Assembly (NCBI GenBank): GCA_964106915.2
Contig: OZ066916.1
Length of the DNA: 64,000 bases
Reading direction: 5' to 3' (one strand)
From: Podarcis gaigeae
Taxonomy: Eukaryota
Shown: positions 25,401 through 31,400 of the stretch, piece by piece
Numbering within the stretch: the stretch's first letter is position 1
How the letters are laid out: the number at the start of each line of letters is the position of its first letter
Notes under the pieces: model-generated
Databases searched by the model: none
Told to the model about the DNA's origin: nothing
Seen by the model: only the letters and a program-made list of their open reading frames with translations
Made by a program: the position numbers and the translations under genes

Positions 25401-28400
25401 GCTTCTTGAAGGCACCTGGTTGGCCATTGTCAGAAACAGGATGGTAGGCTAGGTAGACATTTGGTCTGGTCCAGCAAGGAACTTCTTTCGGAGTGGTGGT
25501 TGTATAAAACCATGCATGCCACGCTGCTGCTGCTGCTGCTGCTGCTACTGCTACTACTGCTACTGCTACTACTGTGTGTGTGTGTGTGTGTGTGTGTTTA
25601 GAAGTAGTAGTGCTTCGCCACACTTCCAGTTTGCTACTGTATTGCACAAACCACATCGCAGGAAGAGAAGCTTAGAGCTAAGTGAGCAAGTTAAGGGAAA
25701 GGTGACAGCCTCCTGTTGGAACCCAGATGCTCTAAACAAATTAAGCTGTTGCTTTCCACAACAATGCCTAAGAATGCATATGCATATTGTAAAGATATTC
25801 TAGGCTATAATTCTGCATCAGACCAGCATGGGAAGTTGCACCTGATTCCAGTTGCTAATGTATGTTTGCTGTTTGACATTTCTAGTTAAGAGATATATGC
25901 TATCAGTAGACAATGGAGTACACCCTGTTTCAAACAAACTCCACCTTGCCTTAATGAGTCACATTTTGAAATGCAAGCTCACGCTGCAAAGGCACTGTTT
26001 AAACATTTATTGTTTTGCTTTTGTGCTTTTGTTCAATTTAAGGCACCCAATTTCCTCTTATAACTCATGCAGAGCTTTGGAACAGATTTGTATTATCAGT
26101 TATAATATAAAGATGCTTGTGTGTTGCAAGCTCGGATAGTAGATTAGCATTTGGTGGAAGGTGCAGAAGAAAATGAGCTGTGGAAAAGCTGCTTTCTTGA
26201 GATTTATACAGGCTGAAGGTACGTCTACACTCTGTGGAAAGCACCTCATGTTTTTGATAAACTTAATATGCCAACTCATCAGTTTGTAGGGAAAACGTTG
26301 TAGGAAGAAGATTATGGAGATGGCAGGGGGATGGCAAGAGACTGGTGAAGCAAAGATTAAATCTCATTTAGAGAGCAAATGTGTGCCACATGCTAGTTAT
26401 GGCTGTCTCAAAACAGCAGACCCAGTTATTTGAAACACTTAACTTAGGCTGTGTGCACACCATAAATGAAAAGTGTATTTAAAGCACATAGCTTCCTTCA
26501 AAGAATCCTGGGTGTAGTTTAACCCTCATAGAGCTACAGTTTCCAGCACCCTCAACAAAAAACAGTTCCCAGGATTATTTGGGGGAAGCCACATGCTGTA
26601 AAGGGACGCAGGTGGCGCTGTGGGTTAAACCACAGAGCCTAGGACTTGCCAATTGGAAGGTCGGCGGTTCGAATCCCCACAAAGGGGTGAGCTCCTGTTG
26701 CTCGGTCCCAGCTCCTGCCAACCTAGCAGTTTGAAAGCACGTCAAAGTGCAAGTAGATAAATAGGTACCGCTCCAGCTGGAAGGTAAACGGCATTTCCGT
26801 GTGCTGCTCTGGTTCACCAGAAGCGGCTTAGTCACATGACCCGGAAGCTGTATGCTGGCTCCCTCGGCAATAAAGTGAGATAAGCGCGCAACCCCAGAGT
26901 CGATCACGGCGGGACCTAATGGTCAGGGGTCCCTTTACCTTTGCCTTTACATGCTGTAAATGCTCTGCTGGATCACATCAGAGACTTATCTAGTTCAGTA
27001 TCCTGTTCTCACAATGGCCATCCAGATGCCCATGGAAAGCCCATAAGCAGGACATGAACACAGCAGCAGCATCTTCCTTGTGTTCCCTGGTAACTGACAT
27101 TCTGAGCTCTAAATGCCTCTAGAACTGGAGGCAATATATAGTCATCCTAGTTAGTGGCCATTGATATACTTCTCCACTAATTTGTCTAATTTATTGGTTT
27201 GTTTTAGTGTTTGTTTTATGCGTTTTGTGTTCTCATTTAGTATTTTTATGTTGTAAACCACCCTGTGATTTTCAGATGAAGGGCGGTTGTCAGGGGTTCA
27301 GGAGCAGAGGCACAGGGAAGAGAGGAGATGGAGAGCGAGGGGGAGGAATCCGAGGGGAGCGTAGGAGATGACAGTGGTCCGAGGGATTCCATGAGCCTCT
27401 CCAGCGAATCGGAAGATTCACAGAAGGGGGCGCCAGTGGCCAAGGGTAGGGGGTTCCCAAGGGGAACGCCCCAGGAGCAAGGGGGCAGCAGGGACTCCCA
27501 GAGCAGTAGTTGGAAATCAGGACCAGCTTCCCCACCAGAGCGGAGTGGGGGGGAAGAGTCCCAAGCATCGGGGCCAGTGCATTCCCCACCAGGGAGAGAA
27601 GACGAGACAGGGCTGACCACGCCTCCATCGGAGAGTCTGACAACGGGGGGGAGGTCAGATCCGGCCAGTGTCCCGGAAGGGGGAAGCAGTGACACAAGTA
27701 GTGTGATGGTTAGGAGAAAGGTCACTGGGTTGGCGCGAGAGGCAAGTTCAAATGTACAGGAGCGCGGGACAGCAGAGAATGAGGATTGGGAACCGGGTCC
27801 TAAGGCCCGCCGGAGGCAGGGGGAGTTGCTAAGCGACTCAGCGTTGGAAGAGTCCAGAAAGGGCAATGCCCCAGCGGGCAGGAGGACCCAGAGGAGGAGA
27901 GAGCAGCGCAAGAGGTGGAGCAGGGCTAGGATCTTAAACTGGTGTCAGAGGGGAGGAGACTCAGACGGGACTTCGCCGATCTAGAGTTCAAGACGTAGTG
28001 CTGCACGCTGTGGCTTTGAAATGGAAATTGGACTTTAATAAAGACTTTTGTACATTACCACAGCCTAGCGTTGGTCCTCTGTGAGCTGGGACCTAGCGGC
28101 AGCTCTGACAGCGGTATATAAAATTTAATGATAACATAAACAAATAACAAATGAATAATCCTGTTTTGCTGTTGGCGGCCATCACAACATCCTAGCAGGT
28201 GAACCTTGGTGTCCAGCAAGGAATATGTGCAGGACAAAGGTTGAGAGGAGACCCAGTATGTTGACTGGGGAAAGGTTACCTGGTTTATGCTCCCACTTGG
28301 ATGGGAATTGTTTCTTGTATCCTATGTCTTGCAAGCTGTTTTATCCTGATTTTTCATTCTCACTGTTCTCACTAGCTGGGAAATCAAACTGATGTTCATC

Positions 28401-31400
28401 TAAGCAGAGATTTCTTCTTGACGAACCGACCTGTTGCTCGCACCGACACATACGTCAACCTGCGTGAAGTCTCAAACCGCTTCCACCTAGCTCAGGGAGA
28501 ATACCTCATTGTACCTTCTACATTTGAGCCTTTCAAAGATGGAGACTTCTGCCTTAGAGTCTTCACAGAGAAACAGGCTAAAGCTCAGTATGTATCTTGT
28601 ACCCCAATGTGCCAAAAGGCATTGTCCCTTTGCACTCAGTGCATCAAAGCTGTGGCTTGATCAGGTGTCTAATCAGGCTTATAGCTCATGACCCCCCCTT
28701 TTTTTTGCTCTCTAAGTTCTCATTAGGGAGTAATGACTATTCAACCATGTTCCATTATACCTCTGCTAGCATAGTGACTGAAGTGATATAATAAAAGACG
28801 AATGAAAAGATAGTTGGGATGGATCTTGGAGTTTGGTGAAGAAAACTTTCAACTTATATGCATAGACATTTTGTTTGTTTGTTTGTTTGCTACCCTTGAT
28901 CATAAAGTCCAGGGTGGATTACAGCATTAAACACCACATTAAAAACAGTTTAAAACAACTTGCAATCATAGCAACAAACAGGTTACAAGAAAAGTGGTGT
29001 TGGTGAGAACACCTCCACTCACCGATTTCCCCATTCCTTTTCAAATCCCCTTTCCTTCACCAGAACCTATTTAGCATGTTTTTCTTTGGACGACAATCAA
29101 ATCTTCAATTAGTTTGAAAATATTCCTTTTATGGACCAGGGTAGAAGTTAAGTCCATGTCAGATGAAAACAGCAAAAGCAAGTGTACACAATTTGGTTCT
29201 GGAGTATTAAGGTGAATGAACCATTTTGTCCCTAGTAGATAAAGGATCTTGCATGGTTACCTTAAGGCTGAGATAGCCAATGCTGTCCCCTTCAGATATT
29301 ACTAGAATTCCATGAGTTTGTGTCTAATGATAATGGGTGGTGGGAGTTGTAGTCCAGCGATGTCTGGAGGGTGCTACATGGGCTAGCCCTCATCTGCTCC
29401 CAATCTCAGGCTTTAAGGTCTGCCTCAGGCCCGCCACTCTCTATACCTTCATCTTGGATCATCAGGCAAGTAAGCATGAGTATCAGGGCCTTCTCAGTGG
29501 TGGTACTGCACCTCTGGAGTAACCTTCCACTAGAGATGCATCAGAATATCTCTTTACTGTCTTTTTAGAGAGACACCAAAAACATTTCTGTTTCAACAGG
29601 GATTTAATGTTTGATCGTGTTACTGTTTTAAACAGTTCTTAAAACAAACAAAACTATTGTAAGATTGTTATCATTTTAAGTTGCGGCATTTTTAAGCTTT
29701 TATCTTAGTAGTTTGATTTTACTTAATTGTATTGGGTTGCAATTTATTTTAATGGGCCTATTCTAAGCATGACTAAACCAAGATTCAGCACACTGAATTT
29801 TTTGGTGTAAGCTATTTCTGAGTGTTTCTATGATAAGAAGAACAGGATATTTAATTATATTCTTCTTCTTATTTTTTCCTCACAGGGAAATGGGTGATAC
29901 TGTGGCTGCAAATCCATATGAGGTAAGCAAATCAAGTGGGGTCAAATTCACAGATTCAGCTTTGGGATACAGAGCCTTATTACTGCAAAAGCTGAGGACC
30001 TCTTTGTTGCAGCCCAGAAAGTGTTGTACGCTAAAGAAAATAGTTCTTTCTTTGCATCCATAAGGCTTAATTCACTGACTTCTTTGCACAACTCATTTCT
30101 GGAGAAGCAAAATTCTGCACCATAAAGCTGTAAGATCAATCACAATGTTTGACAAACGTAGCAGAGATGACAGACTTCCGCTTAGCAAAAGCAACCTTTT
30201 AAGTTTCTGCGCTTCCTGAGCCAGCTTCTCAGGTTTCTGTTCCCTTCAGAGCTTATTTTGACTCAGGAGCCCTTTGGAGGAAGCCTCAGACCTCGGTGTA
30301 AAATGTAACATTATTCATGATTTCTTTTAGCCTCATGTTGCAGGCAAGGACATAGACAGCGAGTTCAAGAGCCTGTTTCAAAAACTTTCTGGGGAGGTAA
30401 GAGGGTTTCTGTGCTATGATAAATGTTCAGAATTAGGCAAATGCTTCAAAGATTTCCCAGTGCATTGGCTGCTTCTTTTTACTAACACAGTTGGCAGTAG
30501 ACTCCTGGAGAGCCGCTTTTCTTGTTCTCAGTCTTTTTATTCCTGCACCATGTTCACCATCACTTGATGGGGGAACTGACAGAGAGGAAACTGGTCCTTT
30601 AAGCATACCCCTCCCCAGGAAAGAGGAAGGACCTGAGAGAGGTGTTCTGGGCTGAGAAGCACAAAAGGCCTTATTTGAACTTTAGACGTCATTGGACCAA
30701 ATTGGCCACGTGGAGCTCTCTCAGGTCCTGAAGTCTGATCTTATCTGTCCCCTGGCAACTTAATATGCCCCTGCTCAAGAACAGGACAATGAGGAAACAG
30801 CGCCTTGTAGACCCCAATTGCCTTCTTTTTAACCTATTCTACATATCAATGTGCCACAGAGGAAAATCGGGATGCGGGTCTTTTGGGGCCGCGCTCCTAC
30901 ACGAGTCACGTGATTCACGGAAGAATGTGGCCCTGCCCAAAAACCCCACATATCTTTCAGAGCCGTGCTCTTGTGGCACCCAGGTGACTTCCGCGATAGA
31001 ACGGTTCCCCCCAAAAGGCATATTTTGGGGCTGCGCTCTTTCAGGAGCCAAAACAGGACATCTTAGAATCCAGGCAAAAGGCAGAGGGCCTTTTTGGTAG
31101 TGGCACCTGCCCTGTCAAGGAAATAAACAACTATTTGACTTTTAGAAGACATCTGAAGGCAGCCCTGATTATGGAAGTTTTTAATGTTTAATGTTTTATT
31201 CTGTTTTTAATATCCTGTTGAAAGCCACCCCGAGTGGCTGGGGATGCCCAGGGTATACGTATGATTATGATTATGATTATTCCAGGATGTCCCACTTAAA
31301 GTAGGACAGTTGATAGACATGATTCTAAACACTGCCCTCCAAATCCAGTAGCTGCAACGTGCATATAGGACATCACTGTGGATACCAATCTACAGTAAGC

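Follow-up and report, generated by a model that had tools for sequence, protein, structure and literature searches.

The 231-codon open frame in the U3 of a solo long terminal repeat (LTR) of Podarcis gaigeae is the C-terminal tail of a retrotransposon Pol. In full-length copies, one continuous frame runs through protease (PR), reverse transcriptase (RT), RNase H (RH), integrase (IN), SH3, a chromo-like domain, an acidic linker, the polypurine tract (PPT) and U3, and it ends at the same stop codon. These last 231 codons of Pol, read through the PPT into the 3' LTR, probably encode a disordered integrase tail that aids nuclear entry and the choice of insertion site. The window analysed was a stretch of 64,000 nucleotides (contig OZ066916.1, assembly GCA_964106915.2), in which the following features were located:

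27283..27287, plus strand: left target-site duplication GCGGT, read from the sequence
27288..28110, plus strand: solo LTR of subfamily A, 823 bp, with ends TGTCA...TGACA, supported by genome-wide copies
27289..27984, plus strand: U3 reading frame of 231 codons and stop codon TAG (27982-27984), corresponding to the last 231 Pol residues in the 3' LTR of full-length copies
27328..27330, plus strand: in-frame ATG, giving 218 aa; conserved only within subfamilies A, B and C
27880..27945, plus strand: Arg-rich segment followed by an I/L-L/A-N/C-W motif, with counterparts in families E, F, G, H and T in different codons
27933..27938, plus strand: putative TATA-like CTTAAA, ~30 nt 5' of the predicted start and overlapping the ILNW codons
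27963..27973, plus strand: self-primer of 11 nt, complementary to the primer-binding site (PBS); predicted transcription start and U3/R boundary, covarying in A, B and C
28037..28042, plus strand: AATAAA polyadenylation signal, read from the sequence
28111..28115, plus strand: right target-site duplication GCGGT, read from the sequence

An earlier note on this DNA had described an 823-bp TG..CA element with a 5-bp target-site duplication, 231 open codons from 27289 (218 aa from the ATG) and three basic patches (VRRK, PKARRRQ and a third Arg-rich patch), and all of these were confirmed. The charge polarity that it reported is real, although modest (net -8 at residues 1-30 and +6 at residues 181-210). 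Its caveat that a T-poor strand by itself depletes stop codons was correct as to composition, the 823-bp element being G-rich and T-poor (G312 A216 C175 T120); however, composition rarely suffices, as a plus-strand frame of at least 231 codons was found in 4/3000 mononucleotide shuffles and 9/3000 dinucleotide shuffles. The Pfam search of the 231-aa frame matched no family. The ESM Atlas search of the tail gave no usable match, which proves neither novelty nor absence. AlphaFold2 prediction of the tail from a 14-row alignment had a mean pLDDT of 37.5, which is too low for use; the only feature of the model was a helix, itself of low confidence, across the Arg-rich segment.

A genome search identified subfamily A copies with 96-100% identity across the 40 scored of 3092 candidates. 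Among the 30 best genomic copies, 27 were solo LTRs with a 5-bp target-site duplication, and the full-length frame was kept in 24; the three copies lacking the duplication were attached to internal gag-pol sequence. On the minus strand, a 232-codon frame (window 27246-27944) mirrors the U3 frame and carries one to two stops in other subfamilies; it is probably a by-product of the U3 frame. On the LTR's own strand and 265 bp downstream, the segment at window 28376-28587 matched Pfam Calpain_III, with m-calpain as its best PDB match, and is probably a calpain domain III exon. The solo LTR seems to lie within a calpain intron, in sense orientation and carrying its AATAAA signal.

The Gag of the parent element contains Retrotrans_gag, DUF4939, Ty3_capsid and a zinc knuckle, and its Pol contains, in order, protease, RT, RNase H, integrase and SH3_Tf2-1 (Pfam). 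Gag followed by pol as PR-RT-RH-IN, TG..CA LTRs, a short target-site duplication, a PPT 5' of the 3' LTR and no env place it in Ty3/Gypsy (Metaviridae); as pol enters the LTR, env has no room. The gag/pol overlap is in the -1 frame and includes GGGAAAC in A2 and B copies, and a variant of this string, which the search pattern did not match, in the C copy. The PBS is an 11-nt sequence two bases past the 5' LTR, and its complement lies 148 nt from the LTR end. The PBS sequence varies among subfamilies A, B and C, with corresponding changes in the LTR complement, a covariation that identifies the element as self-priming; some older copies match over 6-10 nt. Tf1/sushi (V-clade) elements have a PBS complementary to the 5' end of their mRNA (PMC4600332, PMC6317226). 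On these sequence characters, the element is classed as an env-less Tf1/sushi-type Ty3/Gypsy element. The position of the self-primer sets the predicted transcription start at 27963, so that the frame is essentially U3, the ATG lies ~635 nt upstream of the start and the stop codon 19 nt into R. Pfam Chromo did not match A or C Pol. Over 59 aa, the stretch after SH3 shows 34% identity to a chromodomain that Pfam does recognise, in another family of the genome (family D); by inspection, the stretch is without the aromatic cage residues. An acidic linker of 150 residues separates this chromo-like domain from U3.

The continuity of pol with the U3 frame was seen in several subfamilies. In one copy (L035), 969 codons extend from RNase H via the PPT to the stop codon of the window's frame, with Pfam integrase domains upstream. 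A search with protein P0002 gave 150 scored matches, all 100% identical and belonging to the very young subfamily C; the 1566-codon frame of this subfamily contains 66 of these 150 matches, a count made by hand that pools 5', 3' and solo LTRs. The 1566-codon frame was present in 4/4 fetched C elements, whose LTR pairs were 99.6-100% identical, and a B copy (L128) has a frame of 1528 codons. One A2 copy (L129) and one further B copy (L134) each contain a single upstream internal stop or shift, with the junction intact. The UniRef proteins P0007 and P0009 of Podarcis muralis likewise show pol-U3 continuity. In older A/B elements (30 loci), the 3' junction was in frame in 8 of 27 scorable cases, and the other 19 had lost bases in G-runs. 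We tentatively read these losses as slippage after insertion, because they hit three different G-runs and are absent from the young C copies. The possibility raised in the earlier note, that the frame is the tail of an internal ORF entering the 3' LTR, is therefore what natural full-length copies contain.

The U3 frame is under purifying selection between lineages and evolves neutrally after insertion. Pairwise omega among natural A, B and C copies was 0.26-0.32 for U3 (kappa 1) or 0.35-0.41 (kappa 3). Integrase was below this (0.05-0.11) and the acidic linker was similar to U3; in the last third of the U3 frame, the confidence intervals reached 1 in some pairs. A maximum likelihood codon model of six subfamily representatives gave an omega of 0.343 (LRT 82.8 against omega = 1, p = 9 × 10−20). 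Synonymous variation was present at 46 of 69 invariant U3 residues. In a nucleotide-only alignment, differences were in excess at third positions relative to B (25/31/56, p = 2 × 10−4) and C (33/45/76, p = 3 × 10−5), also without CpG sites, while no such excess was found between the LTR in the window and a close A2 copy (7/21/18, p = 0.25) or 3' of the stop codon (6/8/9 and 10/7/10). A single U3 indel, of 63 nt, separates A from B/C, and the stop codon is conserved. The frame preservation and dN/dS analysis proposed in the earlier note thus gave a positive result. Given purifying selection on the frame, neither random decay between lineages, nor a dN/dS near 1, nor composition describes it.

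The 5' and 3' LTRs of four elements differed by 15 nonsynonymous and 5 synonymous changes (neutral expectation 28% synonymous), and this neutral change places the selection on transposing lineages and not on inserted LTRs. Singleton changes in 21 gap-free A copies (49 nonsynonymous and 37 synonymous) gave an omega of ~0.5 (p = 0.004). This signal was lost once CpG sites were separated (p = 0.30 and 0.08), and the result is ambiguous because singletons mix lineage changes with post-insertion changes. In a neutral simulation, the frame remained stop-free in 5-8% of trials, so the lack of stops alone is weak evidence. A role of the U3 frame in avoiding nonsense-mediated decay was considered and rejected, as it would not require amino-acid conservation.

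The proposed expression of the tail is as follows. Genomic RNA would start at the self-primer (27963), in R, and Gag-Pol would be made by a -1 frameshift, with translation crossing the PPT and U3 at the 3' end of the RNA. With this RNA start, the 3' LTR of genomic RNA would be the sole source of translated U3. Reverse transcription would then copy U3 to the 5' LTR, and solo LTRs would carry a silent ORF. The solo copy at 27288-28110 is probably silent, since its ATG lies upstream of the predicted start and is not conserved: it is found in A, B and C and is missing in family T and in proteins P0003, P0005, P0007, P0008 and P0009, the position being a Thr, Leu or Ile codon in Podarcis relatives.

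The same observations bear on the other ways in which the frame could be explained. LTR-overlapping accessory genes are known from complex retroviruses (MMTV sag, HIV nef and foamy bet), and Rev and Rex use Arg-rich motifs. The lizard frame resembles these in having coding sequence in U3 and an Arg-rich patch, and the earlier note had proposed a stand-alone Rev/Rex-like accessory protein. However, sag, nef, bet, Rev and Rex are separate genes of env-bearing retroviruses, expressed from spliced or separately started RNAs, whereas the lizard frame is continuous with pol, in a Ty3/Gypsy element that has no env; neither separateness from pol in an env-bearing retrovirus nor a conserved start codon of its own was found. 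A variant in which U3 also, or mainly, encodes a Rev/Rex/Tat-like protein whose RNA is spliced or starts internally could draw on the good-context ATG at 27328 in A, B and C, on the Arg-rich motif and on a donor-like GTAAG at the 5' LTR/PBS (GTAAGT after the 5' LTR of A, C and T, and GTAAGC after that of B). The AAG of this string, however, is accounted for by the self-priming complementarity, the junction instead reads GCAAT or GCTT in families E, F and G, which bear the tail too, and the ATG is replaced in Podarcis relatives and absent in T. With the frame fused to pol in every intact copy examined, we regard this variant as quite improbable. A role-free origin, in which the frame is open only through the T-poor strand (T = 15%) and the conserved promoter and PPT, and in which the peptide is tolerated read-through, would fit the stop-poor antisense mirror frame, the simulated stop-free trials and the overlap of ILNW with the TATA-like box. 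This explanation is largely refuted already, and we consider it highly improbable in view of the omega of 0.34 (p = 1 × 10−19), the third-position excess that persists without CpG sites and does not continue past the stop codon, and an L-x-C-W motif that is maintained in E, F, G and H although its codons differ. The tail might also be translated with Pol and then released by the protease as a separate particle protein, such as an RNA chaperone or chromatin tether. The 150-residue acidic linker between the chromo-like domain and U3, and a basic C-terminus that could bind nucleic acid, are in keeping with this, but the targeting segment of Ty1 and CRM remains on the integrase (PMC8487063, PMC3059260), and we think release unlikely.

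A tail that stays on the integrase is the reading we prefer, and related families have the same layout. A Pfam SH3_Tf2-1 genome search, in which 150 of 3022 candidates were scored and 30 of them fetched, and its follow-up identified four such families (E, F, G and H). They share a GGxxD|VRE junction, with U3 frames of 96, 109, 70-83 and 95 codons, respectively, and their tails end in a basic cluster followed by L-[LA]-C-W, written in different codons. In families D and T, pol enters U3 as well. A self-primer near the end of the frame is also present in E, F and G. In family D, which has an unrelated LTR and a canonical chromodomain (L149:1481-1832, L155 and L164), pol extends 117 codons into U3; this tail is acidic and then reads RRELVAPRRSARLK, and no similarity to the A tail was found. 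Its RRSARL may resemble the HMGN nucleosome-binding core, a likeness that the papers found under that term did not contain. In a sushi-type copy (L165) the frame ends right behind a canonical chromodomain, so not every such element of the genome has the tail. When the family E tail was compared with 1.84 billion representatives, the long tail with LLCW was present in 2 of 111 matches (P0013 and P0094), the others matching in the chromodomain only. Fish-type chromodomain proteins (P0058, P0063, P0073, P0099, P0108 and P0112) have short tails with GEGG-TV...SPE[YF]-like strings, and these tails may, judged from the protein sequences, cross the PPT into the LTR. Contig C32 (29.5 Mb) has a concentration of old full-length and nested LTR elements and could be a W chromosome.

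The sister lineages differ in where they are found. A 20-nt junction pattern for subfamily C had 722 matches genome-wide; on C1, 26 of 61 5'-LTR junctions fell within the last 0.70 of 138.85 Mb, after removal of 2 of 63 rows that were T LTR ends, as the pattern also hits some T. The density of C junctions in this terminal array is ~147x that of the arms. The region (C1:138.15-138.85 Mb) is a satellite array ending in telomere repeats, with a 511-bp unit of 38% GC and a 1010-bp higher-order repeat. The satellite was present at one end of 12/12 sampled chromosomes (C1, C2, C3, C8, C9, C15, C16, C19, C24, C26, C30 and C33) and was absent from the point sampled at the opposite end. Lacertid chromosomes are acrocentric, and the satellite is probably centromeric, judged by chromosome position only, which is the position expected for acrocentric centromeres.

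Across 49 tiled 10-kb stretches of the C1 and C2 arrays, there were 34 C LTRs, 9 A/A2/B LTRs (most of them at degenerate array margins, and 6 of A type), and one LTR each of T and E. The window's own subfamily A is only modestly associated with the satellite (2/30 loci). Family T had 3/71 in the C1 array, and family E, which is equally young as C, had 0/13 on the C1 array and 0/44 near the array-bearing ends of C1, C2, C3, C8 and C9. Some C copies may have spread together with the array: the 14 C junctions in the tiled arrays reduce to 9 distinct sites, one of which recurs on several chromosomes. Several sites hold insertions of either orientation or of more than one subfamily, a sign of separate events. 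Loci L067-L073, which share one satellite site because part of the query P0003 is translated satellite, were excluded from the count of independent sites. Residues 1-46 of P0003, a Logan protein, are translated satellite (78% identity over 46 aa); its LTR frame is ~70% identical to the genome copies and clusters with a Podarcis lilfordi protein. This is a hint, from a protein sequence, that relatives elsewhere may also sit in homologous satellite.

Retention and array amplification could produce the enrichment of C without targeted integration, and both the reduction to 9 sites, with one on several chromosomes, and the gene-free nature of the arrays are compatible with this. We nevertheless find this explanation rather unlikely, as the equally young E is missing near the array ends, the same sites have taken up insertions of either orientation and of more than one subfamily, and C is so much denser in the array than in the arms. 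As E and T have tails and yet are dispersed, the tail alone does not give centromere preference, and any targeting role must rest on sequence detail. The preference for the satellite could come from the chromo-like region or the linker, which are equally open candidates.

Family T has 961 LTR ends, mostly dispersed. We also noted 33 LTR starts that adjoin telomere repeats at one phase; among the 30 fetched (L227-L256, e.g. C8:108.65 Mb and C31:14.15-14.21 Mb), 28 were T and 2 were C. Site-specific cutting of telomere repeats by T was rejected as an explanation, since the fixed phase agrees with the 5-bp target preference that the family shows in general. At three loci (L208, L213 and L215), telomere repeats are joined straight to the middle of an element, as if chromosome ends had been healed inside retrotransposons.

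An extension of pol into the LTR has been described in plants, namely into the 3' LTR in group A of the CRM elements (PMC3059260) and in the Beetle and Bingo elements of beet (PMC3605345), and the lizard element shares this layout (PMC3059260, PMC3605345, PMC6317226). It is not a CRM element by PBS and host, and is CRM-like in layout: the PBS of CRM group A is complementary to tRNA-Met whereas the lizard element is self-priming, and the hosts are plants and a vertebrate, respectively. In CRM group A the CR motif replaces the chromodomain, whereas the lizard element keeps what looks like a degenerate chromodomain upstream of the PPT. The lizard tails are 70-231 low-complexity residues in which no Pfam similarity was found. 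CRM elements are concentrated at centromeres; lizard subfamily C is enriched in a terminal satellite that occurs once per chromosome in those sampled and is a candidate centromeric sequence. Bingo1-4 and Bingo7, of the Reina clade, are similar in having a chromodomain 5' of the PPT and an ORF extension into the LTR (PMC3605345), and differ in having a plant host.

The V-clade elements Sushi-ichi and Amn-san share with the lizard element the self-priming PBS, TGTYANR-type LTR ends, the -1 gag/pol overlap (GGGAAAC in A2 and B), SH3_Tf2-1 and a chromo-like domain, while entry of pol into the LTR is not mentioned for Tf1/sushi elements in the available text of the same papers (PMC6317226, PMC4600332, PMC4131045, PMC3601003). 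Fish relatives have short post-chromodomain tails (~30-100 aa, at the protein level only). The C-terminal half of Ty1 integrase is disordered and dispensable in vitro (PMC8487063), and in Arabidopsis the C-terminal region of Tal1/EVD integrase (IN2) sets the preference for centromere or arm (PMC11735389). The likeness to the lizard tail is a poorly conserved or disordered integrase C-terminus with a role as nuclear localisation signal (NLS) or in integration preference (PMC8487063, PMC11735389); however, these are Copia elements in which the segment is internal and not encoded by the LTR, and their function has been established by experiment, whereas that of the lizard tail is proposed. Centrophilic transposons are reported to be widespread in a preprint whose main text contains no lizard terms (bioRxiv 10.64898/2026.09.17.752431). 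No description of the pol-into-U3 layout in vertebrates was found in a search that excluded subscription papers and Repbase sushi reports, and no centromere- or telomere-enriched chromovirus of lizards was found outside subscription papers.

By analogy with the C-terminal module of Ty1 integrase and the CR motif of CRM, the low-complexity tail, with its NLS-like basic clusters and its short conserved motifs, may act as an NLS and/or a chromatin tether, which we rate slightly above even. It is likely to help steer insertion because sister lineage C accumulates in probable centromere repeats, as do plant elements of the same layout; that it contributes to the satellite preference of the lineage itself is possible, and we suggest it tentatively. 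More tentative still is the wider proposal that lizards hold a vertebrate counterpart of the plant centromeric retrotransposons, in the form of a self-priming chromovirus in which nearly all of U3 was turned into a targeting tail, the chromodomain cage was lost, and variants of the tail led to different niches (satellite for C, in part telomere for T, and arms for E).

The Pol-tail reading explains why thousands of solo LTRs in this genome resemble genes for proteins; in Podarcis, such frames have been annotated as hypothetical proteins. It also means that, in a vertebrate retrotransposon, a promoter region has largely been converted to coding sequence under selection. The sister elements form a natural series that shares one layout but occupies different niches on the chromosomes, with strong enrichment of one member in arrays that are probably centromeric, and this series makes the way in which retroelements find centromeres testable in a vertebrate using tail peptides alone.
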